Shown here piece by piece: positions 45,917-63,385 of a stretch of 64,000 bases of DNA (position 1 is the first letter of the stretch; every line of letters starts with the position of its first letter). A program made the translations under genes and the position numbers. The stretch is taken from contig CBDCWP010000004.1 of assembly GCA_965223505.1 (NCBI GenBank), positions 1 through 64,000 on the forward strand, given 5' to 3'. This DNA is from Planctomycetota bacterium (GTDB lineage: Bacteria; Planctomycetota; PLA2; JAEUHO01). The notes beneath the pieces are model-generated. The model was given only the letters and a program-made list of their open reading frames with translations, searched no databases and was not told where the DNA came from.

Positions 45917-47365
45917 TCAGGTTCGCGCGCCCTGCGGCAGCTCACGGACGTATCGTCGGTAGGTCGCCAGCCAGCGCTCGGGATGGCGCAAGGGATGCAC
46001 GTATTCGAGCAGCGCGCCCGGCAGGTCGAACGCCAGGCGGTCCGGAATCGCGTTCCACACACGACAGCGACCGAAGGTCAGTGTCGCCGACGACACCTCG
46101 CATCGGAGGAACGCGAGAAGATCGCGCGCCCAACACTCGAACACGGCGACGTAGTCGCTGACGGGATCGCCCGAGTCCACGGCGACGAACGTAGAGCGCT
46201 GCGGTTCGTACGCGTATACGAATGCGCCGTCGTCCTCCCCGTCGCGCAGCGCCAGGGCGAAGGTCGGGCGCGTCTGCGCGTCGTCCAGCGCCCCGAGCGA
46301 GTACAGGTCCTTGAAGAGGTCCCTTCCATACAGGTGCGCCGCCAACGAGCGCAGCTCGACGTCGAGGGCGTCGAGCTCCTCGTCCGAGAGCGACGCCTGC
46401 GAGGTCGCCGCGTCGTAGTCTTCGAGCCACTCGACGTCGCCGACGAACGTCCGCGCGGGCCACTCGTCCTCGGGCGAAGCGGACAGGAACGGTGTGCCGT
46501 GCGCCTGCTCGACCAACTCACCGTCTATCATCACATACGTGTCGCCGGGCCGAGGCCAACACACACGGTTCGCGGGCAGGAGCGGCTCGAGCGCGAGGGC
46601 GTGCGCGCGCCCGTCCGTCGTGAAGGCATTTCCGTTGAGCCAGGCCCGATCGCCCCCGAAGCAGAATCCGCCGCCGACGACGGCCCAGGCGGCCGGCATT
46701 CGGTGGTTCGCATCGAGCCACTCGCAGATCCCGATGGCGCTTTGCACGAACGTTGCGATCTCTTCCGGATGCGGTCCGCTCCAGCTCGTGAGGAAGTGCC
46801 ACTCGCTCCAGTTGTTGGTCTGCCCCCAGACTCCGACGCGGTCGACGCGGGCACGGACCCGCTCGAGCATGTCTTGCGTCGCCGGCATGTCCACGCTGGT
46901 GAAGAAGCTGCCGTGCCCGGCCAGGTCACGTACCAGATACGGCAGGACGTCCCACTCTTCGATGATGGCGTCGCGGCGCTGATCGGCGGACATCGGCAGG
47001 AACTCGAGGCCGCCGACCGTCACGCCCTCGTCCGGGTTCAGCAGACGGACGCCGAATCCCATCTCCGCCAGGATCGTCCGCATGGCGACAGAGGAGCGCG
47101 ACGACATGTAGATGGGCACCGAGCGGTCCAGGCAGTGGAGCGAGGCCAGGTCGAAGTGCCCTTCGTGTTCGTGCGTGAGCATGACCGCGTCGAGAGCCGG
47201 GAGCGCCGATACGTCGACGCGGCGGGGCGGAAACACGCGCAGGCCGACCGCGGGCGTCAGTCCGAACGCGTCGTGCAAGAGGGGATCGACGAGGATCCGC
47301 GCATCAGCGGCCTCGAACAGCCAGCCGTGGTGGCCGAGCGCGGTCATGCGAAAGGCGTCGTTCAT
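45917..47365 (-). CDS. MBL-fold metalloenzyme paralog 1 (putative peptide-modifying enzyme)
   Basis: LGHHGW, LVDPLL, THEHEGHFD, EEWD, C-terminal ECWARDLL/YVHPLR domain. Confidence 0.8.
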   Translation of the reverse strand: MNDAFRMTALGHHGWLFEAADARILVDPLLHDAFGLTPAVGLRVFPPRRVDVSALPALDAVMLTHEHEGHFDLASLHCLDRSVPIYMSSRSSVAMRTILAEMGFGVRLLNPDEGVTVGGLEFLPMSADQRRDAIIEEWDVLPYLVRDLAGHGSFFTSVDMPATQDMLERVRARVDRVGVWGQTNNWSEWHFLTSWSGPHPEEIATFVQSAIGICEWLDANHRMPAAWAVVGGGFCFGGDRAWLNGNAFTTDGRAHALALEPLLPANRVCWPRPGDTYVMIDGELVEQAHGTPFLSASPEDEWPARTFVGDVEWLEDYDAATSQASLSDEELDALDVELRSLAAHLYGRDLFKDLYSLGALDDAQTRPTFALALRDGEDDGAFVYAYEPQRSTFVAVDSGDPVSDYVAVFECWARDLLAFLRCEVSSATLTFGRCRVWNAIPDRLAFDLPGALLEYVHPLRHPERWLATYRRYVRELPQGART

Positions 47366-49494
47366 GGCATCCGGGCTCGCAGGGTGTGAATCTCACCGAA
47401 CACGGGCCTGAGATCCGGCGCCAATCCGAGCTGAAGCCGTCTCACCGCGCGCTCGAGGTGTGGCCCGCCGTCGGCGTCGAGCTCGGGCCACCGCAGACGC
47501 AGGGTGTTGATGCCCGATCGCACGGTCGTCGCCGGCGCCAGCACGGTCGCGCGGCTCCATTGCGCACCTGTGGTGATCCGGCCCACCTCCGTGCCGTTCA
47601 GCACGAGGGCCGACGTGCGATCGTCCTCGTCGTCGCGGGGGGCACGGAGCGTGAGCGCGAGCTCCACGGCGCGAGGCTCGACGACCAGAAAGTGGAACGT
47701 GGACTCCGGCGTCAGCGCGCGCTCGTAGGAACGCGACGTCGGATATGCGGCGAACGGCGACCCGCGGAAGTACCCGCGCGCGAGATCCTGCTCGCCGCGC
47801 TCGAGTCCGCGGGCGTCGGCCAGCAGCAGTTCGAGCCGCTCGCCGGCGCCCGGTCGCCGGCGCTCGAGGACGGCGATGACCGCGCGGACCACGGGCACGT
47901 CGAGCACGTCGTAGTCCTGCCAGCGCCAGATCCGCGCCGGCATACGGTACGGCGATTCGAACACGCGTTGCTGCGCCGACGAGAGCAGTGGGGGGGCGCA
48001 GGCCGCCTTTGCCGCGACGTAGTCCGCCAGCACCTCCTCGATGCCTTCCGAGCTGTCGAGTGCCTGCTCGATCCAGTACTCGGTGCCGGCGGCGCCGTCG
48101 GTCAGCGGACGCTGAATGTGGGCGGTGTGCAGCGCGGCCAACATCGCGCCGCGGGCCTCGACCGTGTCCGCCGGACTCGGCGGCGGCGATGCACTCGCGA
48201 CCGTTCGCCAGTCCAGCGCCTGGAAGCGAGCGGGATGGCTGACTGCCAACACCTCGGCCACGACCGCGGCCATCGCGACGTGCATGCCCTCGGGCGTCAG
48301 ATGACAATAGTCGAGGAACAACCTGCGACCGGGCAGCGGCGATGCGGCATGGTCTGCGAACACGGCCGGAAGGTCGACACACAACAGGTCGTGCGCTTGC
48401 GCCGCGTCACGGATCGCTTGCCGGACCACCGGACTCGCACCGGGCGCCGATGCGCGTCCGAGCCAGCGCGACGCCTCGAGTCCGGCGAGCAGCGCGTCGC
48501 GCGCCGCCTCCGTCCGACCGATGCGAAGCAGTGTCGTACCGAGTGCCTGATGGGACGTGGCGCACGTTCCGTCGTCCAGGGCAAGCATCGCGCGGGCGGC
48601 GTTCTCCGCTGCCGCGAGATCGTCGTTCGCCAGCGCGTCGAGAACCTCTTGCTTGTGCGCGAGCCAGCGGCGATTCCGGTCGCCCGGCAACCACGACGGC
48701 GGGAGATCGTGCTCCCAATCCGTCAGGTTCGTCTCCGGCACGACCAACGCCATCGTGACTCCGGAGCGGTCCGCGATCGCGGCGAGCTCGGCGCACACGG
48801 CCTCCGCCTTCGACTTCAGGTGGTTCGTTGCGAGGCGCTGAAGGCCAGCCGGCCCTTCGGCGTCCAGCGCCGCCGCGTGTTCGTGCAGGAGCTCGAGCGA
48901 GAGGACGTCGGCGAACGCGGGCGCGTCCGGCGCCGCGGCGAGCCAGTTGTTGCCGGCGAACACGACGATCACGTCCGGAAGCAGCTGCAACGCGGTCCGC
49001 GAGACCTCCAGGACGCCCTCGTCCGTCTGATCGACCCGGCACAGGTCGATGACCTCGAACAGGTCCGCGCCCGCCGTTGCGTCCAGCTGGCCCTGCAGCA
49101 CCTGCGCGGGCGTCAGATCCGGCGCGTACAAGAACCCCGCCGCCGTCGACTCGCCGACGAGGCAGACCCGAATCGGCAGGAACGCGTCTTTGGGTCGCAG
49201 CGTCTTGGTGAGCGCCCAGTCGTCCTCGAGCTCGAGAGGATCGGGGCGAACGAAGACCAGCTCGCCGTCGACCTCCTGGGGCTCCCAGATCCCGATGGCC
49301 TCCGGGCGGTCGGCGTCCGGATCGTCTTCGTCGGAGTACGGCTCGTCGAGCCCGGCCGGCTCGACGGCGCGCGGGACGCCGACCATGCCGGTCTGTTGCA
49401 GCAGACGCAGCGTGCGCAGTCCTTCCTCCGTTGCCAAGAGCTGCGCGAGCTCTTCGCAGGCGGCCAACGGAGGTTGTCGTCGGTCTCGGGACAT
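47362..49494 (-). CDS. SGNH/GDSL-type hydrolase with TPR-like helical insertion
   Basis: Block I VCLVGESTAAG, block III VFAGNN, block V FLDYCH. C-terminal part of ORF 47362..51036, ATG at 49494. Confidence 0.72.
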   Translation of the reverse strand: MSRDRRQPPLAACEELAQLLATEEGLRTLRLLQQTGMVGVPRAVEPAGLDEPYSDEDDPDADRPEAIGIWEPQEVDGELVFVRPDPLELEDDWALTKTLRPKDAFLPIRVCLVGESTAAGFLYAPDLTPAQVLQGQLDATAGADLFEVIDLCRVDQTDEGVLEVSRTALQLLPDVIVVFAGNNWLAAAPDAPAFADVLSLELLHEHAAALDAEGPAGLQRLATNHLKSKAEAVCAELAAIADRSGVTMALVVPETNLTDWEHDLPPSWLPGDRNRRWLAHKQEVLDALANDDLAAAENAARAMLALDDGTCATSHQALGTTLLRIGRTEAARDALLAGLEASRWLGRASAPGASPVVRQAIRDAAQAHDLLCVDLPAVFADHAASPLPGRRLFLDYCHLTPEGMHVAMAAVVAEVLAVSHPARFQALDWRTVASASPPPSPADTVEARGAMLAALHTAHIQRPLTDGAAGTEYWIEQALDSSEGIEEVLADYVAAKAACAPPLLSSAQQRVFESPYRMPARIWRWQDYDVLDVPVVRAVIAVLERRRPGAGERLELLLADARGLERGEQDLARGYFRGSPFAAYPTSRSYERALTPESTFHFLVVEPRAVELALTLRAPRDDEDDRTSALVLNGTEVGRITTGAQWSRATVLAPATTVRSGINTLRLRWPELDADGGPHLERAVRRLQLGLAPDLRPVFGEIHTLRARMP

Positions 49495-49502
49495 GTCGCT
49501 CG

Positions 49503-51266
49503 TCAAATGAAGGTGTAGACCGTCTCGCTGATTCGCCCGCGGCGGTCGGAAGCCCGTAGCCGGCGATGGTATTCCAGTGTGTGTGTCCACGACGAGGGCA
49601 GCATCTCCCGGTCGATGACGAAGTCCTCTAGGACCAGCGCGTCCAGGCGTGCGTCGACGGCGCACAGCAGGGCTTCGGCCGGCGTGCGCACGATCGGCTC
49701 GCCGCGGACGTTGAACGACGTGTTCACCAACACGGGGCAGCCCGTCAGTTCTTCGAACGCCGAAAGCAGCGCGGCGAACCTGGGCGCGACCGATGGATCC
49801 ACCGTCTGGGGGCGCGCCGATCCGTCGACGTGCGTGATCGCCGGCAGGTCGAGCTTCGAGTCGACCCGGCACGTCTCCAACATGAACGGAGACGGGTGAT
49901 CGAGCGCGAAGTGTTCGGCGGTGCGATCGGCGAGCACCGCCGGCGCGAACGGCCGGAACCCCTCCCGTTTCTTGATCCGCTCGTTCAGGCGGCTCTGCAT
50001 CTGCGGGTCGCGTGGGTCCGCGAGGATGCAGCGCGCGCCGAGCGCGCGGGGGCCGAACTCCATTCGGCCCTGGAACCAACCTACGACCTGTCCGGCCGCG
50101 AGTCGTCGCGCGACGTCGGCGACGAGCTGTCCTTCGTCGTGCCGGAACGCGGCTGCCTCGATCCCGACGCCCTCCAGCAGCCGCGCGACGTCGTCGCGCG
50201 CGAACGACGGACCGAGGCAGACGTCCTCCAGTCGCCGAGTGTCCGGTCGATGCCCCGTGAGTCGCACATGCGCCAGCGCGGCGGCGCCGAGCGCGCCGCC
50301 CGCATCGCCCGCGGCCGGCTGGACGAACACGTTGCCGAACGGGCCCTCCCGCGCGATGCGACCGTTTGCGACGCAGTTGAGCGCCACGCCGCCGGCCATG
50401 CAGAGGTTGTCCGAGGCGACGAGCCCGGCGAGACGGGAGACGGCGTCGAGCAGGATGTCTTCGAGCACGACCTGCAGACTGCGAGCGATGTCCTTGTGTC
50501 GTTGGCGCAGTGGCTCGTCGGGCCGTCGTGCCGGCCCGCCGAGCAGGTCGCAGAGCGCGTCGGTGTACATGCGATCTGCGCGACGAAATTCGAAGTACGA
50601 GAGGTCGAGCGCGTAGTGTCCGGCGCCGTCCGGCGTGCTCAGCGCGCGAATCGCATCGACGCAGGTCGGTCGCCCGTAGGGAGCGAGTCCCATCACCTTG
50701 TACTCGCCACTGTTGACAGCGAACCCGAGGTATCCGGTGATCGTGCTGTACAGCAGGCCCAGCGAGTGGGGGAAACGCACCTCGTCGAGCAACTCGATCT
50801 CGGCGCCCTGAGCGCGTCCGTAGGTCGTCGTCGCCCACTCGCCGACGCCGTCGACCGTCAGCACCGCCGCGTCGTCGAACCCGGAGAAGAAGTACGCGCT
50901 CGCCGCGTGCGACATGTGATGCTCGAAGGACTCGATCCGTCCCTCGTGGCCGAGGAGCTCGCGAATGTCCCGTTCCGGCCGTCCCGGGTCGATCCAGCGA
51001 AGATCCTGCGCTCCGCCGAGCGGACAGCCTGCCCAAATCTGTCTAGCCAGCTTGAGCGGCGGCGACTCGTAGTATGCGACACAGTCCACGTCGTCGATGT
51101 CGATCGCCCCCTCGTCCAGGCAGAATCGGAATGCATCCACGGGAAGCCGCCCGTCGTGCTTGATGCGCGAGAAGCGCTCCTGGGCGGCGGCGGCGACGAG
51201 CACGCCGTCCGAGATCAGGCAGCATGCGGACTCGTGGAAGTACATGGAGAGACCGATGATGTTCAC
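49503..51266 (-). CDS. O-carbamoyltransferase (NodU/CmcH/TobZ family)
   Basis: HESACC, QERFSRIKHD, HHMSHAAS, DGVGE, EYKVMGLAPYG, GGVALNC, FGPRALG, KKREGFRPFAP, HVDGSARPQ, NTSFN. Confidence 0.96.
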   Translation of the reverse strand: MNIIGLSMYFHESACCLISDGVLVAAAAQERFSRIKHDGRLPVDAFRFCLDEGAIDIDDVDCVAYYESPPLKLARQIWAGCPLGGAQDLRWIDPGRPERDIRELLGHEGRIESFEHHMSHAASAYFFSGFDDAAVLTVDGVGEWATTTYGRAQGAEIELLDEVRFPHSLGLLYSTITGYLGFAVNSGEYKVMGLAPYGRPTCVDAIRALSTPDGAGHYALDLSYFEFRRADRMYTDALCDLLGGPARRPDEPLRQRHKDIARSLQVVLEDILLDAVSRLAGLVASDNLCMAGGVALNCVANGRIAREGPFGNVFVQPAAGDAGGALGAAALAHVRLTGHRPDTRRLEDVCLGPSFARDDVARLLEGVGIEAAAFRHDEGQLVADVARRLAAGQVVGWFQGRMEFGPRALGARCILADPRDPQMQSRLNERIKKREGFRPFAPAVLADRTAEHFALDHPSPFMLETCRVDSKLDLPAITHVDGSARPQTVDPSVAPRFAALLSAFEELTGCPVLVNTSFNVRGEPIVRTPAEALLCAVDARLDALVLEDFVIDREMLPSSWTHTLEYHRRLRASDRRGRISETVYTFI

Positions 51267-52723
51267 GCCGACCTCCGCGGGCCGGGCAGACGCGGCCCGT
51301 CGTCGTGAAGCGCGGCGACGATCGAACGATAGCGCTCGCGATACGCATCCGGACGACGCAACGGATGCACGTACTCGAACAGCGGCTTGTTGAACTCGAA
51401 CGCGAAGGCACGGGGATTCGCATTCCACATGCGCGAGCGTCCGAAGCAGAGCGCCGTCGTCGACATCCGGCAGGTCAACATGGCCAGGAGGTCCGTCGCC
51501 CAGCACTCGTAGACGGCGAGGAACTCCTTCGGCGGATCGGGTGACGCGACGCGCACGAACGAGCAATGCTCCGGTCGGTAGGCGAAGGCGAGCGGCTGCT
51601 CGCCGTCACGAAGCGACAAGGCGAAGGTCGGGATCCGTCCCGCCGCGTCCGGCACGGACAGGCCGCAGATGGCGCGGTGAAGCGAACCACCGTGCAGGCT
51701 GCGCGCCAGCCCGGCCAACGCAGCTTCGAGCGCCGGGACGTGCGAACGCTCCAGCACCTCGCGACCGGAGGCCGGGCGGTAGTCCTCCAACCAAGCGACG
51801 TCGCCGCGATGCTCCCGCGCCGGCCACGCGGCCCTCGGCGCGACGCGCACGAACGGCGAGCTCGGTCGGACCTCGGCGACCTCGCCGTTCTTCAGAATCA
51901 ACGTTTCACCGGGGACCGACGGGCGAACCGTGACGCCCGGGAGCTGCAGCGCCAGCGCGCGCGCGGCCTCGTCGTTGGTCCAGGGGAAGACCTCGTGATT
52001 GAGGAACGCTTGCTCCCCCCGGAAGCAGAAGCTCTCGCCGGTGACCAGCAGCTGCTCGGGCGCGGTCCACTCATGCGCCATCGCGGTGTGGTAGTCGACG
52101 ATCGATCCCACGAAGCTGGACAGGCTGAAACGGTCCGGACGCGCCCACCGGGCCTGGAAGTGCCAGTCCGTGTTGTTGTTGGTGTACACCCAGAGCCCCG
52201 GTCGCTCGACGAAGGAGCGTGCGCTGCGCCACATCGAAGGCGTCGGCGCCATGTCGATGTGCGTGAAGAGGTTGCCGTGTCCGTCGCGATCGCGAACCAC
52301 GAACGGCAGCACGTCCCACTCCTCGACGATGCCGTTCTCCACCTGGTCCGCGGTCATCGGAAGCACGCTCAGATCCGCGCCGATCTCGACGGGACGTCCC
52401 GGTCTCGTGAGCCGAACGGAGAAGCCCATGTCGGTCAGAATCTCGCGCATCGCCGGGGACGAGCGGGACGGCATCAAGATCGGCGTGCTGCGATCCACCA
52501 TGTCGATCGACGCGAGGTCGAAGTGGTCCTCGTGCTCGTGCGTGAGCAGCACGGCGTCAAGAGGCGGCGCAGCATCGAAGTCGAATCGCCGCGGCGGATG
52601 TACGGCGAGTCCTACGGCTTCGGTCGCGGCGAACGTGTCGCGCAGCAACGGGTCGACGAGCAGGGTGGAGGATGCCGTCGACACGACCCATCCGTTGTGT
52701 CCGACGTGGGTGACGGAAAACAT
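51263..52723 (-). CDS. MBL-fold metalloenzyme paralog 2
   Basis: VGHNGW, LVDPLL, THEHEDHFD (HxHxDH), EEWD, ECWATDLL, YVHPLR. Confidence 0.82.
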   Translation of the reverse strand: MFSVTHVGHNGWVVSTASSTLLVDPLLRDTFAATEAVGLAVHPPRRFDFDAAPPLDAVLLTHEHEDHFDLASIDMVDRSTPILMPSRSSPAMREILTDMGFSVRLTRPGRPVEIGADLSVLPMTADQVENGIVEEWDVLPFVVRDRDGHGNLFTHIDMAPTPSMWRSARSFVERPGLWVYTNNNTDWHFQARWARPDRFSLSSFVGSIVDYHTAMAHEWTAPEQLLVTGESFCFRGEQAFLNHEVFPWTNDEAARALALQLPGVTVRPSVPGETLILKNGEVAEVRPSSPFVRVAPRAAWPAREHRGDVAWLEDYRPASGREVLERSHVPALEAALAGLARSLHGGSLHRAICGLSVPDAAGRIPTFALSLRDGEQPLAFAYRPEHCSFVRVASPDPPKEFLAVYECWATDLLAMLTCRMSTTALCFGRSRMWNANPRAFAFEFNKPLFEYVHPLRRPDAYRERYRSIVAALHDDGPRLPGPRRSA

Positions 52724-52727
52724 GACG

Positions 52728-53933
52728 TCAAAGCGCCTTCCGATAGCGCTCGGCGAAACGCTCGGGGAACCGATGCGGGTGGATGTGTGCTTCCAAGGCG
52801 CTCGCGAGCTCGAATGTGAACCGTGGATGCGCGACGGAGGTGCTCTGCGAGCCGGTCCGCGTCAGCGTCTCCGGCAGGATCTCGGCACGCAACGTCATCA
52901 ACAAGTCCGTTGCCCAGCACTCGAAAACGGCGACGTAGTCGTCGATCGTTCGACTGTCGTGAAGCAGCCGGAACGCGCATGCGTGCGGCGCGTACTCGAA
53001 CACGTGCCCTTCGCGATCCGTACTTCGCAAGAAGAGTGCAACCGTTGGACGCTTGCCCGGATGCTCCTGGGGCGAGAGCGAGTAGAGCTCGCGAAACAAA
53101 CGCTTGCCGTACAGGTGTCTTGCCAATGTGTTCAGCTCAGCGCGAAGCTCCGCGATCTCTCCGTCCGAGAGCGCGCCGCGTCCGCACAGCGGACCGTTCT
53201 CCAGCGTGTCTTCGATGGGTTCCCGGGCGTCCACATAGGCGTCATCGCTCTCGTGTTCGACGACCGTTCCACGGCGGACGCCGAAGCGCTGCCCCGGAGC
53301 CCACGCGCGCACGTCGTCTTGCGGCAGGAGCTGCGCGAGAACGCCGGCTTGTGCCTGCGCGCCCGTCGCCGGTCCATCGGCGATCAACAGGCCCGCCGGG
53401 CGTGCCCACTGCCGGCTCATGCGCCGGTGCGCCCCGGCCAGCGCCAGGATGCCTTCATGCGCCGGCGCCGGGTACACCACCAACCCGGGGACGTCGAGTG
53501 CGGCGCTCGCCGCCGCGCACTCCACGGATGAGGGCGCTCCGTCGATCGGCATGAAGAGACTGCCCTCCGCGTCGGCGTCGCGAACGACGCACCCGAGCGC
53601 ACCCCACGCTCGGCCGGCGTCGGCGATGTCCGCCACCGTGTCGACGCGCAGCGTTCCGATGTCCAGCGTCTCTCCACCGTGCACACGCTGCGTCGCGAAG
53701 CCCAGCTCCTCGATGACGACGACCATTGCGGTGGACGCATGCGCGGACACGTAGATCGGGACGCTGCGATCCAGCCCCGCGAGCGACGTAGGATCGAACG
53801 CTCGTTCGCGTGGCAGAAACACGGCGTCAGGCGCGTGTCCGCGGTCCACTCGGAACGCGTCACCGATGATCAGGTGCCCGCGACGCCCGCGCACCGACCA
53901 GGTGCGACTGCCCAGGTACGTGGCCGTGAACAT
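52728..53933 (-). CDS. MBL-fold paralog 3, metal ligands lost (pseudo-enzyme or scaffold)
   Basis: Homologous to paralogs 1 and 2 (LDRSVPIY, LARHLYG, VFECWATDLL, HPHRFPERF), but the HxHxDH position reads PRERAFD. Confidence 0.75.
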   Translation of the reverse strand: MFTATYLGSRTWSVRGRRGHLIIGDAFRVDRGHAPDAVFLPRERAFDPTSLAGLDRSVPIYVSAHASTAMVVVIEELGFATQRVHGGETLDIGTLRVDTVADIADAGRAWGALGCVVRDADAEGSLFMPIDGAPSSVECAAASAALDVPGLVVYPAPAHEGILALAGAHRRMSRQWARPAGLLIADGPATGAQAQAGVLAQLLPQDDVRAWAPGQRFGVRRGTVVEHESDDAYVDAREPIEDTLENGPLCGRGALSDGEIAELRAELNTLARHLYGKRLFRELYSLSPQEHPGKRPTVALFLRSTDREGHVFEYAPHACAFRLLHDSRTIDDYVAVFECWATDLLMTLRAEILPETLTRTGSQSTSVAHPRFTFELASALEAHIHPHRFPERFAERYRKAL

Positions 53934-53963
53934 CGACGCCCCGTCCTTGCCGGCAAGACCTTG

Positions 53964-54206
53964 CTAGGAGGAGACGTTGTCGTTGGTGTTGCCGTTGTTG
54001 AGTCGGTTCTGCACGGCCCACAACGCGTTGACGGCAGGTGTGTTCTTCTGACCGATGGCCCAGAGGGCGTTCAGGGCCGTGTTGGTGCCCCCGATGGCGT
54101 TGCTGGCGCTGGGGTGTCGCATCCCCCCGCGCATCTCCCGCAACTCTTTCTTGGGGATCGTCCGGGTCTTGCCCGTCAACTGGACGCGCCGTGCTCGCTT
54201 CTTCAT
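53964..54206 (-). CDS. RiPP/bacteriocin precursor A with double-glycine leader (80 aa)
   Basis: Leader ends IPKKELREMRGG. The 52-aa core has two NALWA repeats and 11 Asn. GAGAGG RBS. Confidence 0.85.
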   Translation of the reverse strand: MKKRARRVQLTGKTRTIPKKELREMRGGMRHPSASNAIGGTNTALNALWAIGQKNTPAVNALWAVQNRLNNGNTNDNVSS

Positions 54207-54402
54207 GGCAACCTCTCAGGTTATCGACCCCTGCGCATCGTAGCACTTCTGCGCGGCGCCATGCAAGGCCACCAGCGCATGGCGACCCCCGCCATATGTT
54301 CACGATTATCGACATCGGCTGTACGGCGCAGATACAAGCCGTATCGACGCCGAATCCGTCCCGCCGGCCACTCGCGGGCCGACGGGACGGTGGTTTGCGC
54401 TT

Positions 54403-54608
54403 CTAGAAAACCTGGTTCGCGAAATGCACCGCGTCCTGCACGCCGTTGCTTGCGGGGTTGATGAAGACGGAGTAGATGTCGCCTTCGGAGGCGGGAAGAG
54501 GGCGCTCGGCCAACCCGAAGTAACCACGGCAACGCCGGCGGCGTTGTCACTGAGGCCCCCGCGGGTCAAACGCATGTCCTTCTTGGAAAGCTGCTTCGTG
54601 AAGTCCAT
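54403..54608 (-). CDS. RiPP/bacteriocin precursor B with double-glycine leader, apparently frameshifted (predicted 68 aa)
   Basis: Leader MDFTKQLSKKDMRLTRGG. GC3-rich codons switch frame near 54493-54495 and end at TAG 54403-54405. The uncorrected ORF runs to 54306. Confidence 0.65.
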
Positions 54609-54763
54609 CCTCGTCAAGTGGTTTCAACCAGCCGAGCGGGATGCTCGACCGGGGGTGGGAGTCTAGCAGGCCACCGTTGAAGCCCTTTGCGGCGAAGCGT
54701 CCGAATCGAAGACCAAGACGACGTTCACTCTGCGCGACACTCTCCGTTCACTCAGCGCGGCCG

Positions 54764-57055
54764 TCACTTGTTCCTCGGCGGCGTGTTCGCGCGGACCGCT
54801 TCGATGAGGACGTCGCCGGTGGTCTGCAGGCTCGCCCGCGATACCCGCTCCACGCGGTCCTCCGACGTGTGTCGGAATCGATTGCGACCGGCGCGTCGAA
54901 CGGGATCGGCGCCGCCGAAGTCGAAGTCGCACAGCAACGCCGCCGGGATGCCGGCGCGAAGAAACGGGATGTGGTCGTTGCGCACGGCGATCGGAATGCT
55001 GTGGGCGCGCGCTATCTCGAAGTAGCGTCCGTAGCCCAACCGTGCTCCGGCGTCGAGCAGCGATGCCGCCACCGACGTCGTGGAGCGTAGATCGTCGGTG
55101 AACTGCAGTCGCTCGTCGCCGACCATGTCGCAGACGACGACCGCGATCAGCCGGTCGACCTCGCCGGCGGCGACGACGTGCTCGACGAATGCGCGGCTGC
55201 CGTACAAGCCGTGGCGCGGACCCGAACGCCCCAGCGCCTCCTTGCCGTCGAAGAACGCGATCCGCACCGCCGGACGGGGCTTCATGGCCGCCAGGACACG
55301 CGCGCACTCGATCAGGACGGCGGCGCCAGAAGCGCCTTCGTTCGCGCCGGTGAAACCCGACACCCCCTCCAGCCGCTTCGTGTCGAGGTGCGTCGCGAGA
55401 AGAACGTATCGTTCGTCACGCTCGCCTGGCAACGAGGCGAGCGTGTTCTTCAGGACCCGTCCCCCGCCCGGCGTTTGCACTGCGACGTCCTCGATCTCCA
55501 CTGACCAACCCGCGGCCTCGAGCTGCGCGCGCACGTACCCGCGTGCGTTCTCCAGGGCCTCGCTGCCGAGGGGACGCGGACCCAGCTCGGCCAGGGCGAC
55601 GAGGTCCGCCATCGAACGATCGGCGTCGAACGGCGTTCGCGCAGCGGGCGCCGGTCGCGGCGAGAGCGGCGGCGGCGCTTCGGTCGGCGTCGTCGGCGTC
55701 ACCGCGGCGCCTCCGCTCAGGCCGAACAGGCGACGCACCGGTTCGAAGAGCAAGCTGACGATCCGCGGTCGCTCGGTCACGATCTCCGCGGAGAGCGTCA
55801 GCCCTGCGCGCAGTGCAAGCCCCTCCGGTGCGTCGCCTTGCACACGCTGTACGGCGAGGCGTCCGGTGAACACCGACGCGCCCGTCGTAGGGTCCTCCGT
55901 CGGTACCAGCGCGACACTCTCCAACCGTGCCTTCACGACGCCGAAGCGCTCGAACGGATACGCGTCGAGCTTGATCTTGCAGAGCGCGCCGGGTCGCAGA
56001 GCCGCGGCGTCGCGATTGGCGAACGTCGCGGTCGCCGCCACGTGGGGGGACGTGGAGATCGAAAATGCAGGCGTGTCCGCCTCGACCCGGTCGCCCGGAA
56101 CGATCGGCGCCGCGAAGTTGATCAACCCGCTCACCGGCGCATGCAGGACCAGCAGCTCGAGCACGCGCTCGCTCGCGTCGATCTCCGCCTCGAGCTTCTC
56201 GATGTCCGCGCGCGCCGTGTCGCGGGTGGCCCGCGTACGCGCGGCCGCGTCGCGCAGCGCGGCCTGCGCGGATTCCAGTCGGCTCTTCGCGGCGGCGACG
56301 CGTTCGTCGGCTTCGATGGTGATCACGTCGAGCGCCTGACGCGCCTCGCGCAACGCCGCTTTCGCACCCTCGACGAGTCCGCGCTGCGCGTCACGCTTGG
56401 CGATCGCCGCGTCGTGCGTCTCGCCGTCGATCAGCTTCTTCTTGTACAACGTCGTCGCGCGCTCGGCCGCCTTGTCGTCCCTACGAAGGGTGGCTTCGGC
56501 GGCGGTCAGCGCCGCCTGCTTGGCCTCGAGGCGTGCGCGCTCGAGCTCCACCCGGCGCGGAATGACCGTCTCGCGATGACGCAGCTCTCGCGTGTGCGCG
56601 TCGCGCGCTGCGCGCCAGTCTTCGATCGTCTCGGCGGCGGCGACGTCGGCGACGGCCTTCGCTTCGCCCGACGCCAGGAGGGCCGCCAGCGCGGTGACGG
56701 TCTCGTCGAGGGTCGTCCACTGCCGGTGCGCGCGACCGTGGTCCTTGCGCAGCCGCTCCAGACGCCCGCGTTCGGCTGCGTCTTCCAACCGCAGGAGCAG
56801 CTGTCCGGCTCGCACCTGCTCGCCTTCGGCCGCGTAGACCTCCGCGACGACGCCGGCGGTCGAGAGCCGTACGTCCGTGCGCTCGTCCACGGCGACGAGC
56901 AGCCCGCGGCCGACGACGACCCGATCGACGCGCACGACCGTCACGAACGTTCCGACCGCGCCCAGCAGGAGGAGCAACAGCCACAACAGCAGCCGACGCC
57001 CGCGCGCGCCGACCGCGGGCTTGGCGGGACGGGGCAGGATGGCGCCGCCGCTCAT
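54764..57055 (-). CDS. HlyD-family secretion adaptor fused to a C-terminal M28 (glutaminyl-cyclase-like) domain
   Basis: TM anchor, EGEQVRAGQLLLRL, coiled coil, LHAPVSG, LDAYPFERFG; Pro-rich linker; then THLDTK, GANEGASG, FFDGKE, GSR, DMVGD, NDHIPF, HTSED. Confidence 0.85.
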   Translation of the reverse strand: MSGGAILPRPAKPAVGARGRRLLLWLLLLLLGAVGTFVTVVRVDRVVVGRGLLVAVDERTDVRLSTAGVVAEVYAAEGEQVRAGQLLLRLEDAAERGRLERLRKDHGRAHRQWTTLDETVTALAALLASGEAKAVADVAAAETIEDWRAARDAHTRELRHRETVIPRRVELERARLEAKQAALTAAEATLRRDDKAAERATTLYKKKLIDGETHDAAIAKRDAQRGLVEGAKAALREARQALDVITIEADERVAAAKSRLESAQAALRDAAARTRATRDTARADIEKLEAEIDASERVLELLVLHAPVSGLINFAAPIVPGDRVEADTPAFSISTSPHVAATATFANRDAAALRPGALCKIKLDAYPFERFGVVKARLESVALVPTEDPTTGASVFTGRLAVQRVQGDAPEGLALRAGLTLSAEIVTERPRIVSLLFEPVRRLFGLSGGAAVTPTTPTEAPPPLSPRPAPAARTPFDADRSMADLVALAELGPRPLGSEALENARGYVRAQLEAAGWSVEIEDVAVQTPGGGRVLKNTLASLPGERDERYVLLATHLDTKRLEGVSGFTGANEGASGAAVLIECARVLAAMKPRPAVRIAFFDGKEALGRSGPRHGLYGSRAFVEHVVAAGEVDRLIAVVVCDMVGDERLQFTDDLRSTTSVAASLLDAGARLGYGRYFEIARAHSIPIAVRNDHIPFLRAGIPAALLCDFDFGGADPVRRAGRNRFRHTSEDRVERVSRASLQTTGDVLIEAVRANTPPRNK

Positions 57056-60000
57056 CCCACCTGCTCCGCGTGGAACATGGCATACAAGCCGCCTTGCTCG
57101 AGGAGGGCGGCGTGGGTGCCTTGCTCGGCGACGCGGCCCCGTTCGAGCACCACGATGCGATCCGCCCGCCGCGCGTACCCGAGGCGGTGCGCGAGGAACA
57201 CCACGGTGCGGTCGCGGCTGGTCTCGTCCAACGCGTTCAAGAGCGCGGCCTCGCTTTCCATGTCGAGCGAGCTCGTCGGCTCGTCGAGCAGCAGGAGTCT
57301 CGGCTGCCCCACGAGCGCGCGCGCGATCGCGAGACGTTGGAGCTCACCGCCGGAGAACCGTGCCGTGCTCCGCTCGCCGACGAGCGTACCGTAACCCTGC
57401 GGGCGATTGATGATCTGGTCGTGGATCCCCGCAGCCTGCGCAGCGGCGATGATGTCCGCTGCTGCGAGCTCGCGGCCGACCGCGATGTTCTCCATGATCG
57501 TTCCGGAAAGCAGCTCGATCTTCTGCGGAACGAATCCGACCTGGCGGCGCAGCGATCGCGCCGAGACGTTGCGCAGGTCGTGACGATCGACGTAGACCGA
57601 ACCCTTCTCGGGTTGAAAGAGCTTCAGCAGCAGATGAACGAATGTGGTCTTGCCCGCGCCGCTGCGTCCGACGATCGCGACGCGTTCGCCGGGCAGGACC
57701 TCGAGCGAGAGATCTTCGAAGACCGGCGGTAGGTCCCGTTCGTAGCGAAACGTGACATTCTCCAGGCGAATGTGGCCTTCCACGGAGCCGATGTCGAGCA
57801 ACGACTCCGTCTGCGGTTCCTCCGGCGAAGCGTCGAACACCTGGCTGAGCCGCTCGAGCGAGACCGCCGTCTCCTGAAAGCTCTCCCAGATCCCCAGCAA
57901 GCGCGTCGCGGGCGCGAGCACCTGGGCTAGCACGGCCGAGAAAGCGACGTACGCACCGACGCTGAGCGAACCGTCGATCACGAACCGTGCGCCGAAGTAG
58001 ATGACCGCGGCTTGGCCGCACGCGCCAATGAACGTGCCGAGCGTCTGCGACAACGTCACGAGGCGCACCCCGCGCAGCTCCGAGGCGAGCATCCGGTGGA
58101 AGAGACGCTCGTATCGGCGCCGTTCCGCATGTTCCGCGTTCGCGCCCTTGACCGTGACGACCGACGAGAGCGAGTCGACGAGGGCGGACTGGGTCTCGCC
58201 CTGGCGGGTCACCTGCTCTCGGCGGATGCGACGCAGGCGCGGTGTGATGAACCACGTGAGCAGTGCCAACAGCGGAATCGGAAACAGTCCGATGATTGCG
58301 AGCTCGACGTCGTAGCACAGGAGCACGATCAGGTACACGGCCCCCAACGCGACGTCCAGGATGGCGCCCGTCGCGACGGTCGTGAGGAAGTGACGGACCT
58401 TCTCGTTGTCCGCGAACCGCACGAGCAGGTCGCCGACCTTGCGCGACGCGAAGAACTGCAGCGGCAGGCGAAAGAGCTTGTGGTGGAAATCGCTCACCAG
58501 CGCCAGGTCGGCCGCACGCACGACGTCGTAGAGCAGCAGCGTGCGCAGCGCGCCGATCAGCGCGGAGAAGAGCGCGGCGCCGATCATCGCGGCCAACAAC
58601 GCGATCAGGATCGACACCTCGCCGTGGACGAACACCCGATCGATGACGGTCTGTGTCGTGAAGGGGATGACGAGACCAAGCAGCTGCAATGTGAAGGCGG
58701 CCAGCAGCACCTGGAAGATGACGCCGCGGTGGGGCCGCAGGTAGGGCAGAAAGCGCGAGAGCCCCTTCGGTCGTCCGCCCGCGTCTTCGGGCGGCGCGGA
58801 GGTGGGCCGCAACAACAGCAAGGTGCCGTCCCACCCTTCCATGAACGCCTTGAGCGGTATGCGCTTGAGCCCCTGCATCGGGTCTGCCACGACGACACGT
58901 CGTCGCGAGACGGCGTACAAGACGACGAAATGATTGCCGCCGACGTGCGCGATGGCGGGCAGCCGCACGTTGCGCAGGTCGTCCGCCCCTTCGACGCCGA
59001 CGCCGCGGGCGAGGAAGCCGATGTCCTCGGCGGCTTCGGCCAGCGACAGGAGGGAACAGCCTTGCTGCGAGACGCACGCGAGCTCGCGCAGCCGCCCGTG
59101 CAACGCCGGCCGTCCGTAGAAGTCCGCGATCATGCCCAGGCAGGCCGGACCGCAGTCGGTCGCGTCCGGTTGGAGCCGCAAGGGGTACCTGTGCAACGCC
59201 CGTCGCAGTGCGCGTCCGACGAGCGTGCCCGGCGGTTCCAGCAGACGGGGATCGAGCGCCTCTTCGAGCTCCTCCTCGACGGTTTCATGCGACGCGCTGC
59301 GTGTCGGCGTGCGGCGTCCGCGGTGCGACAGGGCGGCCACGAGGGTCGCGAAGAACGGCCGCAGGGCCCGCGCCTCTTCGTCGGACGCGGCAAGCACGAG
59401 CCGCCGCCCCGGCGACAGCGCCACGATGTCGGCCGGCTCCGGCGTGTCGAGCGCCATGCCGGCTTCGCCGAAGGTGTCGCCGCTCACCAGCATGCGCGGC
59501 GAGTCGTGCGCGTCCCCGGCCTCGCGGCGAGCGCGTCCTTCGACAAGGAGCGAGAAGCCGTCGGCGCGCTCGCCCTGGCGGGCCAACACGTCGCCGGCGG
59601 CGAACGCCTGGGGTGCGAGCGCGAGGACGACGTTGCGGACGATCTCGGCGTCGACGGACGTCGCGTCGAGATCGTCCAAGAAGGCACGCAGCGCCGGCTC
59701 CCCGAGCGCGGCCGTCAACGGTCGAAGCGACGGGTCGTTGTCGAGCACGCTTCGATCGAGGCGCAACACGGTCATCGCCGTCTCGACGTGCACGGCATCG
59801 CCGCCCGGCGCCTCGCCGAAGAGCTGTCCCCGGAACGCGACGCCGCCTTGTCCGACGGGCGCGTCGCCGCCCTCGGATCTCCCCATCCCGTCGAGCACGA
59901 GTAGGGCGCCCTTGGACGGCGGGATCACGGCGCCGCGTTTGAAGCGTGCGCGCTCGCCGTGCGCCGCGAGTTCCGTGCAGGCGTTGCGTCCGAGCACCCG

Positions 60001-60060
60001 CAGCACGGCGTCGGCGAGTAGCAACCGGGCTGTTCGCCGGAGTTCGGGGTCGTCCTGCAC
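57052..60060 (-). CDS. Peptidase-containing ABC transporter (cNMP-like + C39 + TMD + NBD)
   Basis: C39 QPDATDCGPACL...HFVV...DP; Walker A GRSGAGKT, FSGGELQR, LLLDE, AHR. N-terminal cNMP-like motifs (RQGERADGF, GDTFGE). Confidence 0.93.
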   Translation of the reverse strand: MQDDPELRRTARLLLADAVLRVLGRNACTELAAHGERARFKRGAVIPPSKGALLVLDGMGRSEGGDAPVGQGGVAFRGQLFGEAPGGDAVHVETAMTVLRLDRSVLDNDPSLRPLTAALGEPALRAFLDDLDATSVDAEIVRNVVLALAPQAFAAGDVLARQGERADGFSLLVEGRARREAGDAHDSPRMLVSGDTFGEAGMALDTPEPADIVALSPGRRLVLAASDEEARALRPFFATLVAALSHRGRRTPTRSASHETVEEELEEALDPRLLEPPGTLVGRALRRALHRYPLRLQPDATDCGPACLGMIADFYGRPALHGRLRELACVSQQGCSLLSLAEAAEDIGFLARGVGVEGADDLRNVRLPAIAHVGGNHFVVLYAVSRRRVVVADPMQGLKRIPLKAFMEGWDGTLLLLRPTSAPPEDAGGRPKGLSRFLPYLRPHRGVIFQVLLAAFTLQLLGLVIPFTTQTVIDRVFVHGEVSILIALLAAMIGAALFSALIGALRTLLLYDVVRAADLALVSDFHHKLFRLPLQFFASRKVGDLLVRFADNEKVRHFLTTVATGAILDVALGAVYLIVLLCYDVELAIIGLFPIPLLALLTWFITPRLRRIRREQVTRQGETQSALVDSLSSVVTVKGANAEHAERRRYERLFHRMLASELRGVRLVTLSQTLGTFIGACGQAAVIYFGARFVIDGSLSVGAYVAFSAVLAQVLAPATRLLGIWESFQETAVSLERLSQVFDASPEEPQTESLLDIGSVEGHIRLENVTFRYERDLPPVFEDLSLEVLPGERVAIVGRSGAGKTTFVHLLLKLFQPEKGSVYVDRHDLRNVSARSLRRQVGFVPQKIELLSGTIMENIAVGRELAAADIIAAAQAAGIHDQIINRPQGYGTLVGERSTARFSGGELQRLAIARALVGQPRLLLLDEPTSSLDMESEAALLNALDETSRDRTVVFLAHRLGYARRADRIVVLERGRVAEQGTHAALLEQGGLYAMFHAEQVG

Positions 60061-60152: not shown

Positions 60153-61502
60153 CTACTCGCCCGCTTCGTCGGCTTCGGCCAACCCGTATCGAAGCAGCTT
60201 GCGGTACAGCGTCTTGCGATCGACGCCCAGGATCGCCGCCGCGCGCCGGCGAACACCGCCGACGCTCTTCAGCACCGACAAGATGTGCGCGCGCTCGACC
60301 GCTTCCAGCGTCTGCAGCGAACCCGGCGCCGCGTCCGACTTGCGCTCGTTCCCGTGGCGAATGACCGAAGGCAGCTCGTCCACGTCGATGCGCGGACCGC
60401 GCGCGAGCGCCACGGCGCGCTCGATCACGTGCGCCAGCTCCCGGACGTTGCCGGGCCACGGATACGAGTGCAGCGCGGCGAGGGCGTTGTCCGTGATCTT
60501 CGCCGCCTTGCCGGCCGTGGCGAATCGGCGTAGGAAGTGGCCGACGAGCAACGGAATGTCCTCGACGCGATCGCGCAACGGCGGAACGCGGATCGTCACC
60601 GCGTTCAAGCGATACAGGAGATCCTCGCGGAAGCTCCCGTCCCGAACGGCCGTATCGAGGTCGCAGTTCGTGGCCGCGAGCACACGCACGTCCACGTGGC
60701 GCACCGACGACGACCCCACGCGCCGCACCTCGTTGGACTCGAGCACGCGCAGCAGCTTCGCCTGCACGGCTAGGGGCATGTCCCCGATCTCGTCGAGCAG
60801 GATCGTGCCCTTGTCCGCGGCTTCGAAGAGACCGGGACGGTCCGCGTTCGCGCCGGTGAACGCGCCGCGCACGTGGCCGAACAGTTCGCTCTCCAGCAGT
60901 CCCTCCGGCAACGAGGGACAGTTCACGGCGACGTACGGACCGCTCGAGCGCGGGCCCGCGTCGTGGATCGCGCGCGCAACCAGTTCCTTGCCGGTGCCGG
61001 TCTCGCCTTGCACGAGCACGGACACCGTCAGGGGTGCGACGCGCGCGATCGACTTGAACACCCGCGTCATGGCCTCCGAGCGGCCGACCATCGCGCGCTT
61101 CGCTTCGCCGCGCTCCATCGACGCCTCGCCCGCCTCGCCGCGCGCCTCGGCGGCGCGCTTCACCATGCGGCAGATCTCGTCCATGGAGAACGGCTTGCTC
61201 ATGTAGTCGAACGCGCCGGCGTGAATCGCCTCGACGGCCGTCTCCAGCGACCCGAACGCGGTGACGACGATCGCTTGCAGCTTCGGATCCCGCTCGCGCA
61301 GCGTGCGCATGAGCTCGATGCCGTCCATGCCCTCGAGCCTTACGTCCGTGACGACGACGTCCACCGTCTCGCCGTTCATCGCCTCCAACGCGGACTCCGC
61401 GCTGTCGGCCGCGCTCACGTCGTAGCCTTCGCCTCGCAGGACCTCGACGAGGAGGTTGCGCGCAACCGCGTCGTCTTCCACGATCAACACGCTCGTGCCC
61501 AT
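60153..61502 (-). CDS. Sigma-54-dependent response regulator (NtrC/AtoC family)
   Basis: Receiver VEDD...TDV; GETGTGKE, ESELFGH, GAFTGA, WPGNVREL, Fis-type HTH. Confidence 0.96.
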   Translation of the reverse strand: MGTSVLIVEDDAVARNLLVEVLRGEGYDVSAADSAESALEAMNGETVDVVVTDVRLEGMDGIELMRTLRERDPKLQAIVVTAFGSLETAVEAIHAGAFDYMSKPFSMDEICRMVKRAAEARGEAGEASMERGEAKRAMVGRSEAMTRVFKSIARVAPLTVSVLVQGETGTGKELVARAIHDAGPRSSGPYVAVNCPSLPEGLLESELFGHVRGAFTGANADRPGLFEAADKGTILLDEIGDMPLAVQAKLLRVLESNEVRRVGSSSVRHVDVRVLAATNCDLDTAVRDGSFREDLLYRLNAVTIRVPPLRDRVEDIPLLVGHFLRRFATAGKAAKITDNALAALHSYPWPGNVRELAHVIERAVALARGPRIDVDELPSVIRHGNERKSDAAPGSLQTLEAVERAHILSVLKSVGGVRRRAAAILGVDRKTLYRKLLRYGLAEADEAGE

Positions 61503-61503
61503 C

Positions 61504-62307
61504 TCAGCGCTCCTCGCCCAGCGGCTCGATGGTGAGCGTGACCACGGTGCCGATGCCCGGCTTGGAGTCCAGAAGGATGTCGCCACCGTGCGCCTTCGCG
61601 ATCTCCCGGCAGATGGCGAGACCGAGGCCGGATCCGCGGCCCGCCCCCTTGGTCGAGAAGAAGGGCTCGAAGACGTGGTCCATGTGCCGCGACGAGACCC
61701 CGTGCCCGGAGTCGCAGACGGAGATGGCGCGGCCGGCGCCGGTGGCGTCGGTTCGAATGACGAGCGTGCCGCCCTTGGGCATCGCGTCGATCGCGTTTTG
61801 AACGAGATTGAGGAAGACCTGTTCGAGCTGATCGCGGTCGCACGCGATCGGCGCTTCCGACCCGGCGCCGATGTCGAGTTCGAGTTGAATCTCGTTCTTG
61901 GTCAGCAGAGGTTCGAGAACGTCGAGGACGTGCACGAGCAGGGCGTGAATGTCGGTCGGCGTCGGCTCGGGCTCGGGGCCTCGCAGTCGGCGCAGGTAGC
62001 GCCGAATGAGCAGCGAGAGGCGAGAGACCTGGTCCGCGATGATCTCGGTGCGGCGGCGCGCGTCGTCCGGAAGCGCCGGGTCCGCGAGCATGAGGTCGAG
62101 ATGTCCGGAGATGGAGTGCAGAGGCGTGCCGAGCTCGTGCGCGAGACGGCCGACCAACGCGCCGAGTGCGGCGACCCGCTGCGCTTGCGCGAGCTTGCGC
62201 TGCATGTCGAGCAGGGTCGGCGACGTCGCGTCCTGCGTGGGCTCGGACGGCGGCGTCTGCGTGGCGCGCTCTTCGCTCTGACGCGCATCCGCGTTCATAC
62301 GTGACAC
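61504..62307 (-). CDS. Histidine kinase with only HisKA and HATPase domains
   Basis: AHELGTPL, QVFLNLVQNAIDA, DSGHG, FEPFFSTK, GSGLGL. Alternative ATG at 62298. Confidence 0.92.
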   Translation of the reverse strand: MSRMNADARQSEERATQTPPSEPTQDATSPTLLDMQRKLAQAQRVAALGALVGRLAHELGTPLHSISGHLDLMLADPALPDDARRRTEIIADQVSRLSLLIRRYLRRLRGPEPEPTPTDIHALLVHVLDVLEPLLTKNEIQLELDIGAGSEAPIACDRDQLEQVFLNLVQNAIDAMPKGGTLVIRTDATGAGRAISVCDSGHGVSSRHMDHVFEPFFSTKGAGRGSGLGLAICREIAKAHGGDILLDSKPGIGTVVTLTIEPLGEER

Positions 62308-63370: not shown

Positions 63371-63385
63371 TGGCACGCACGTTGC
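63371..63385 (+). promoter_or_regulatory. Sigma-54 (-24/-12) promoter
   Basis: TGGCAC-GCACG-TTGC, an exact TGGCAC-N5-TTGC match. Confidence 0.85.

Follow-up and report, generated by a model that had tools for sequence, protein, structure and literature searches.

Peptides that are exported and cleaved by ATP-binding cassette (ABC) transporters with a C39 peptidase domain are well known. The leaders recognised by these peptidase-containing ABC transporters (PCATs) end in GG, GA or GS and have hydrophobic residues at positions -4, -7 and -12, as stated in an excerpt of a review whose figure legend underlines -4, -7 and -12 only (PMC10885120). Among peptides synthesized ribosomally and modified post-translationally (RiPPs), the crocagin pathway of Chondromyces crocatus has paralogous, metalloenzyme-derived proteins, CgnB and CgnE, that bind the precursor, and a hydroxylation that is followed by carbamoylation (excerpts of PMC10070186). 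In a Streptomyces RiPP pathway the NodU-like carbamoyltransferase StdF carbamoylates Lys, which yields homocitrulline (excerpt of PMC13174530). A locus with likenesses to these systems is present in the 64,000 nt stretch of DNA analysed here (the window), which represents positions 1 to 64,000 of contig CBDCWP010000004.1 from a Planctomycetota bacterium (assembly GCA_965223505.1). The locus has a small gene on the minus strand, termed precursor A, and its leader and gene neighbourhood indicate that the product is very probably a secreted peptide processed by a PCAT encoded close by. The probability that this exported precursor would also be tailored by enzymes encoded downstream of it is placed at roughly 0.6.

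Precursor A and its export genes

The precursor A gene and its parts, all on the minus strand, are as follows.

53964-54206, minus strand: gene of precursor A (80 sense codons and a stop), from translation, codon-position GC content and open-frame length
54123-54206, minus strand: leader, aa 1-28
54123-54128, minus strand: the GG that ends the leader
53967-54122, minus strand: core, aa 29-80
54057-54071, minus strand: NALWA unit 1 (aa 46-50), in predicted helix 34-51
54015-54029, minus strand: NALWA unit 2 (aa 60-64), in predicted helix 57-71
54212-54217, minus strand: Shine-Dalgarno-like GAGAGG, 5 nt 5′ of the ATG, by direct reading of the sequence

The initial annotation had described an 80-residue open reading frame (ORF) with a double-glycine leader and an Asn-rich, Cys-free core that carries a duplicated motif, and each of these points held when the sequence was re-read. 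The translation of 53964-54206 is identical to the 80 residues given there. The 28-aa leader is very basic, with 11 Lys or Arg residues, and ends in Gly27-Gly28. Met25, Leu22 and Ile17 occupy positions -4, -7 and -12 and a Glu is found at -8, and the leader thus agrees with the PCAT rule in both its end and its hydrophobic positions. Position -15 is Thr14, so the hydrophobic -15 residue of the ComA-type motif is absent. A plain GG-leader pattern matched two ORFs in the whole window, precursor A and a neighbour, ORF B, which is described below. A six-frame scan of the 5.15-Mb assembly, in which the GG-leader pattern was combined with filters on GC content at the third and second codon positions (GC3 and GC2), let 25 ORFs pass; precursor A was the sole convincing one as judged by reading the rows.

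The core has 11 Asn among its 52 residues and no Cys. Asn makes up 1.6% of nine neighbouring proteins, and the core is thus enriched 13-fold (binomial P for at least 11 in 52, 7e-10). The pentapeptide NALWA is present twice. When the core was shuffled 200,000 times with its composition preserved, a non-overlapping exact repeat of at least five residues was obtained in 0.27% of cases. Ala and Leu are encoded differently in the two copies (GCC CTC versus GCG TTG), and the repeat is therefore maintained at the protein level. A single Lys, aa 54, is found in the core. Precursor A matched no family in either Pfam or NCBIfam.

A structure model of precursor A was made with single-sequence AlphaFold (AF2; mean predicted local distance difference test score (pLDDT) 76.5, predicted template modelling score 0.40). 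The model displays short strands at aa 5-10 and 13-18 and a leader helix at aa 19-27, directly ahead of the GG. The core folds into helices 34-51 and 57-71, with one NALWA unit apiece, and ends in a disordered Asn-rich tail; the helices are mildly amphipathic (hydrophobic moment 0.25-0.36). There is also an internal GG at aa 39-40, which had been put forward as a possible second cleavage site but agrees poorly with the PCAT rule. Ala is found at both -4 and -7 of that GG and Ser at -8. Because of these two Ala residues and the location of the GG within the first core helix, C39 is unlikely to cleave there a second time.

The open frame that contains precursor A is only 83 codons long (83 aa), with 3 sense codons between the in-frame upstream stop and the ATG at 54206, and the start is for this reason unambiguous. 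GC content at codon positions 1, 2 and 3 is 0.51, 0.50 and 0.90 across the whole ORF, in a window of 69% GC. This resembles the codon-position GC of neighbouring real genes, and overlapping ORFs on both strands are without such a signal. Precursor A is accordingly taken to be a real small gene. The GC content of the cluster is that of the surrounding DNA. Logan contigs from 4 runs show zero differences from positions 53700-54800 wherever these are covered, and X1 and X2 span the whole of precursor A; the contigs come from one study with at most three samples, and the window's own source is possibly among them.

The export genes lie upstream of precursor A.

57052-60060, minus strand: exporter/protease, 1002 aa, with cyclic nucleotide monophosphate (cNMP)-binding, C39 peptidase, ABC membrane and ABC ATPase domains (Pfam, NCBIfam)
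54764-57055, minus strand: HlyD-family membrane-fusion protein joined at its C-terminus to an M28 peptidase domain, 763 aa (Pfam, NCBIfam)

Some 560 nt separate the HlyD-M28 gene from precursor A, which is downstream of it. The exporter gene ends ~2.8 kb upstream of precursor A on the same strand, with the HlyD-M28 gene and ORF B intervening. Alignment of the exporter's C39 domain with PCAT1 (4ry2; E 2.8e-24) shows that the Gln, Cys, His and Asp which we take to be the catalytic residues of PCAT1 are all kept. This was the sole C39 domain found by tblastn in the 92%-complete assembly. Against NCBIfam model TIGR03796 the exporter scores 488 bits, below the cutoff of 853, and the HlyD protein scores 48 bits against TIGR03794, below the cutoff of 156.

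The exporter is extended at its N-terminus by a long region, residues 1-285, in which at least one cNMP-binding domain was recognised (Pfam, residues 151-226); this suggests that export may be nucleotide-gated. The fusion of HlyD and M28 recurs in four metagenome protein clusters, which are 72-74% identical over a query from the M28 region (aa 500-763); no close HlyD-M28 protein was found in 400 genomes of the phylum. The exporter and HlyD-M28 pair is conserved as a unit elsewhere: at L227, the one genome locus found with this pair, a 70%-identical exporter lies beside a 66%-identical HlyD-M28, on a contig that stops inside the HlyD-M28 gene, ahead of any precursor. An NtrC-type sigma-54 activator gene (60153-61586, minus strand), with receiver, AAA+ and Fis-type helix-turn-helix domains, is situated 93 nt upstream of the exporter gene. 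A sigma-54-type -24/-12 pattern was not found ahead of the exporter or of the precursor; one good sigma-54-type match, TGGCACGCACGTTGC, is present at 63371-63385 on the plus strand.

Two elements are found between the export genes and precursor A.

54403-54617, minus strand: ORF B, the second GG-leader ORF, with a TTG start at 54617 and a 21-aa leader
54356-54390, minus strand: GC-rich hairpin with 14-nt arms that are 93% complementary and a 7-nt loop

The coding signal of ORF B switches frame near 54500, and the second frame runs to 54403, where the C-terminus is plausible. Over 54447-54662, i.e., across the frame switch, a contig from another sample of the same study is identical. ORF B is either a second precursor that is broken or frameshifted, or a pair of separate elements. 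The hairpin is positioned 13 nt past the stop of the second frame and ~150 nt upstream of precursor A, and is without a trailing T-tract; it may act in processing, stabilisation or attenuation between the two peptide genes. The 196-nt spacer ahead of precursor A contains TATCGAC in three direct copies (at 54221, 54306 and 54342), two of them as TTATCGAC, which may be the binding site of a regulator. An Rfam search gave nothing meaningful.

It should be considered whether precursor A is non-functional, i.e., an ORF that exists by chance or, like ORF B, is what remains of a decaying gene. That it is a sequence orphan, that the adjacent ORF B shifts frame and that a promoter consensus was not found would be in keeping with such an origin. 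However a chance or decaying ORF would hardly be expected to have a GC3 of 0.90 with GC1 and GC2 near 0.5, a Shine-Dalgarno-like site at the right distance, a 13-fold Asn enrichment in a high-GC genome and a repeat preserved at the protein level, nor a leader that fits the PCAT rule in an ORF adjoining the sole PCAT. A non-functional precursor A is thus extremely unlikely.

The enzyme genes downstream

Precursor A is followed by five closely packed genes, and these by a TldD-PmbA pair.

52728-53933, minus strand: degenerate metallo-beta-lactamase (MBL)-fold paralog, 401 aa, starting 30 nt past the precursor A stop
51263-52723, minus strand: MBL-fold paralog with HEHEDH, 486 aa
49503-51266, minus strand: NodU/CmcH-type carbamoyltransferase, 587 aa, with a likely GTG start at 51266 that has GGAGG ahead of it and overlaps the upstream stop
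47362-49494, minus strand: 710-aa protein with a weak GDSL/SGNH-like match (26 bits, below cutoff)
45917-47365, minus strand: MBL-fold paralog with HEHEGH, 482 aa
44414-45889, minus strand: TldD, then PmbA at ~43077-44630

From precursor A through the third MBL gene all genes are co-oriented, with spacings of 30, 4, -4, 8 and -4 nt. The 486-aa and 482-aa paralogs are 47% identical, and the 401-aa paralog is 31% identical to them. It is without the HxHxDH motif and several family motifs, and the C-terminal ECWATDLL and HPxR are kept. The carbamoyltransferase displays the Pfam domains Carbam_trans_N and Carbam_trans_C (E 2e-70 and 2e-67). Atlas look-alikes of the 710-aa protein carry GDSL and TPR domains.

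The MBL paralogs consist of an N-terminal MBL domain and a C-terminal domain of ~190 aa (~residues 294-486). In an AF2 model of the 486-aa paralog, based on a 25-sequence alignment (pLDDT 92.6), the first ~290 residues form an MBL fold, with Z-scores of 19.2 to the hydrolase 3rpc, 17.8 to CmlA, 17.7 to FrsH and 15.2 to PqqB; Foldseek agrees. The solved sequences nearest to the profile of the MBL family are NAPE-PLD (3e-10), the diiron monooxygenase FrsH (3.6e-8) and CmlA (8e-7). CmlA and FrsH act on amino acids tethered to carrier proteins. By these comparisons the two intact paralogs resemble diiron hydroxylases as much as hydrolases.

A sequence of events is proposed for the locus. Precursor A would be produced from its own promoter region, and its basic leader would be held by proteins of the MBL-fold family, with the degenerate 401-aa paralog as a partner that takes no part in catalysis. 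Oxidation of core residues, most likely in or near the two NALWA units, would fall to the two intact paralogs, and the NodU-type enzyme would carbamoylate the newly formed hydroxyl, or the single Lys (Lys54). During export by the ABC and HlyD proteins the C39 domain would cleave after Gly28, and the periplasmic M28 domain on HlyD may shorten the N-terminus formed by this cut. Once mature, the peptide would be the predicted helix-loop-helix hairpin, serving as an extracellular bacteriocin or signal. The logic of the tailoring steps, oxidation and then carbamoylation, is supported by the precedents of crocagin and StdF. The general architecture of RiPP clusters, a leader-core precursor together with tailoring-type genes, is present here; that the enzymes act on the peptide we infer from gene order only. 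Where precursor A had been annotated as a RiPP precursor, this is supported in part. The case for the leader and for the exporter, whose C39 domain is the only one found in the assembly, is strong; the packed enzyme genes and a repeat and Asn bias beyond chance are also on the side of that reading, and its tailoring part is plausible.

TldD and PmbA were considered as cluster proteases and rejected. The best matches to TldD, 72% and 70% identical, are from metagenome-assembled genomes (MAGs) of Planctomycetota. TldD-PmbA pairs were inspected at 10 loci picked from 80 returned (8 labelled Planctomycetota), and at 10 of 10 there was no cluster gene within 8 kb upstream. Because the pair stands without cluster genes at all of these loci, TldD and PmbA are treated as neighbours that are probably housekeeping genes.

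The pair also bears on the possibility that precursor A is a multi-core or scaffold precursor, from which each NALWA unit, or else each stretch that follows a GG, would be cut out as a separate small product, or from which one small modified fragment would be released and the rest discarded. Two near-identical units preserved at the protein level despite codon differences would suit such a precursor, as would the second GG at aa 39-40, an M28 peptidase fused to HlyD and the adjoining TldD/PmbA. However the internal GG has Ala in place of hydrophobic residues at -4 and -7 and is within a predicted helix, the units are not bordered by recognisable repeated cleavage sites, and the TldD-PmbA pair occurs without the cluster wherever it was checked. 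A multi-core or scaffold precursor is thus very unlikely. Should the N-terminus of the peptide get shortened, the M28 domain fused to HlyD would be a more plausible agent than a second C39 cut.

Relatives of the MBL-fold family and the weight of the evidence

The MBL paralogs belong to a family of ~480-aa proteins, which at loci L017-L054 and L062-L129 occurs in Myxococcota, Betaproteobacteria and Alphaproteobacteria as well as in further MAGs. HEHE[DG]H lies in the N-terminal MBL fold of its members, and ECWATDLL and HPLR lie in a C-terminal domain that is conserved; those members that are named in their source are all annotated as hypothetical or “metallo-beta-lactamase domain” proteins. The survey comprised 50 proteins, 45 genome loci (38 of them substantial) and 80 metagenome loci returned; the contigs with three paralogs and a 62-kb contig with an HlyD-M28 homolog were not among the latter. 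Of the 38 genome loci, 3 have an ABC match with the C39 part included and a further 4 have ABC matches of other kinds; a carbamoyltransferase accompanies the MBL-family member in 5. A gene family common to L020, L039 and L052 is a LanB-type dehydratase, as assigned by Pfam on the L020 member only. At single loci there is a second MBL paralog together with a C39-VKOR protein, a weak match to PqqD or a RiPP recognition element, or a Trp halogenase. The degenerate 401-aa paralog was absent from 60 related genomes save for one weak partial match, and a locus search with it alone returned no relatives.

The initial annotation had made its case depend on a conserved peptide beside homologous clusters, and on this point the outcome is mixed. 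No sequence homolog of precursor A turned up in any collection searched; what was found are positional counterparts, small ORFs with GG or GA leaders beside distant MBL homologs. Those with a basic N-terminus beside a family gene are at L018 8520-8687, L053 8761-8910, L098 404-556, L063 2282-2368 and L023 9597-9848, and further candidates are present at L064, L065 (identical to L104), L123, L110, L102 and L128. Several are on the strand of the family gene and stop 20-153 nt upstream of it, which may be compared with the 30 nt between precursor A and the 401-aa paralog. Of the ORFs with a basic N-terminus and a GG/GA site that passed a filter, 9 of 15 are at most 1.4 kb from a family gene versus 22% of the non-MBL sequence (P 0.002), with filter criteria that were set after examples had been seen and with some loci that are near-duplicates. 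The candidate cores are mutually unrelated. Trp is present in 7 of 11 of them, with 12 Trp in 267 residues versus 2.0% in short open frames of these loci (P 0.009), an enrichment that is a lead only. On three metagenome contigs, conserved ORFs of 70-72 aa with extremely Lys-rich N-termini (L065 1543-1761, L104 101-319 and L123 547-759) end 20-24 nt before MBL-family genes; two are identical, and the third diverges with the frame kept. These small ORFs are analogs of precursor A by position and make-up only.

A number of results weigh against an exported and tailored precursor A. Among 5.8e9 proteins the search for homologs of precursor A returned itself alone. Four other matches among 1.84e9 representatives (HMMER), to a beta-helix/NosD protein, a GEVED-domain protein, a Nup98-type repeat protein and an unassigned protein, were rejected as repeat-inflated scores from unrelated families. 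The best E value in 60 related genomes was 0.02, and no NALW-type peptide was found in the 38 homologous loci, where two matches were irrelevant. BLASTP of precursor A against the L023 and L123 peptides, the most suggestive two, was not significant, and a hidden Markov model of 11 leaders from the other loci, run against 71,706 short genome frames, retrieved neither A nor B at E values up to 100. The proposed leader family is thus one of position and composition, under criteria chosen once examples had been seen. Most MBL-family loci have a single family gene in varied contexts that do not look like RiPP clusters. The profile and fold matches of the MBL paralogs do not separate hydrolase from oxygenase chemistry. 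Finally, scans near precursor A for sigma-70-like or sigma-54-like promoters and for a terminator found none.

Another reading is that the peptide is an unmodified class II microcin-like bacteriocin or signal, i.e., that a plain 52-aa helical hairpin is cut off after GG and exported while the downstream genes serve another pathway or immunity and share only the transcript. A GG leader, a PCAT and an HlyD protein are a complete machinery for unmodified peptides (excerpt of PMC10885120). Two helices are predicted for the core on its own, the peptide has no Cys, and its Ser and Thr residues are in no known modification-motif arrangement; in addition, many MBL-family loci are without a visible precursor or exporter. 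The gene order is more difficult to reconcile with an unmodified peptide, as 30 nt separate the precursor stop from the next gene and the five genes that follow overlap or lie only a few nt apart. Small ORFs with GG or GA leaders recur directly beside distant MBL-family members, and in the ORF lists no small membrane immunity-like gene was noticed, although no dedicated search for one was made. Unmodified class II microcins and bacteriocins would be accompanied by immunity and export genes only, and here five enzyme-like genes follow the precursor. An unmodified peptide is thus considered unlikely, although it is the strongest of the alternatives.

A precursor that is exported and also tailored by the downstream enzymes is the preferred explanation. 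Taken further, precursor A would be the first member of a class of ribosomal peptides that is so far undescribed. There the MBL family, with a C-terminal domain of its own, would recognise very basic, GG-ended leaders and would oxidise aromatic or Asn residues of the core, by means of two catalytic copies and one degenerate copy that holds the peptide. Each NALWA unit would provide one modification site, the NodU-type enzyme would carbamoylate the new hydroxyl, and export by a cNMP-regulated PCAT would be accompanied by trimming through the HlyD-fused M28 domain. This proposal is doubtful as a whole. If it were true, the MBL family would mark hidden clusters in Myxococcota, Proteobacteria and other phyla. 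Neither an MBL-fold family of RiPP tailoring enzymes nor a matching described pathway was found in the full-text literature searched, which was a limited library.

Precursor A differs from the well-known C39-exported peptides by an orphan, Asn-rich core with a repeat, by a little-studied lineage, probably an uncultured planctomycete, and by an enzyme set, i.e., three MBL-fold paralogs, a NodU-type carbamoyltransferase and the 710-aa protein, that is unmatched to a described RiPP pathway in the literature searched. If these enzymes act on the peptide, they would represent a new family of tailoring enzymes for genome mining and possibly a new peptide chemistry. If they do not, precursor A would be one more unmodified secreted peptide.

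Comparison with described systems

The closest resemblance in export is to the PCAT systems, also termed ABC transporter maturation and secretion systems, such as ComC/ComA, class II bacteriocins, MccV and LahA/LahT. Common to these and to precursor A are the GG site, the hydrophobic residues at -4, -7 and -12 and a predicted helix ahead of the GG, as well as an adjacent ABC exporter with intact C39 residues and an HlyD-family partner. Unlike these systems, the leader of precursor A is unusually basic (11 Lys or Arg in 28) and has Thr at -15, the exporter has an N-terminal cNMP-binding region, and the HlyD protein ends in an M28 domain. In addition, precursor A heads a row of enzyme genes and its core matches no Pfam or NCBIfam family.

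The nitrile hydratase leader peptide (NHLP) and Nif11 precursors, with the export families NHLM_micro_ABC1 (TIGR03796) and NHLM_micro_HlyD (TIGR03794), share the GG-type cleavage that is predicted for precursor A, and the export genes match these families in part. The scores are however far under the curated cutoffs, and precursor A matches no NHLP or Nif11 model. Its leader has 28 aa, whereas the leaders of NHLP and Nif11 precursors are longer than 70 aa according to an excerpt of PMC10885120.

With the non-heme diiron beta-hydroxylases CmlA and FrsH, and with PqqB of PQQ biosynthesis, the two intact MBL paralogs share the HxHxDH motif, which is absent from the 401-aa paralog, and a fold match over the N-terminal ~280 residues. 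The order of domains is different: in CmlA and FrsH the MBL domain is C-terminal, behind another domain, whereas here it is N-terminal and is followed by a domain of ~190 aa. It should also be noted that zinc hydrolases score as high as CmlA and FrsH or higher with the MBL paralogs (3rpc, Z 19.2; NAPE-PLD, E 3e-10).

The carbamoyltransferase belongs to the same Pfam family as StdF and the NodU/TobZ-type O-carbamoyltransferases, and the core of precursor A has one Lys (aa 54). StdF itself carries a fused S8/S53 peptidase and has YcaO-TfuA and a multinuclear non-haem iron oxidase as partners, as described in an excerpt of PMC13174530; profile scans of the present cluster found none of these.

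The crocagin pathway differs in the nature of its proteins. CgnB and CgnE are aminopeptidase-like and not MBL-fold proteins, and the crocagin oxygenase is dependent on 2-oxoglutarate (excerpts of PMC10070186). The crocagin core is a C-terminal tripeptide and no PCAT takes part in that pathway, whereas precursor A has a 52-aa core beside a PCAT. The likeness is one of arrangement, as in both cases metalloenzyme-fold paralogs, one of them without a metal site, adjoin a precursor with a basic leader (PMC10070186 for crocagin).

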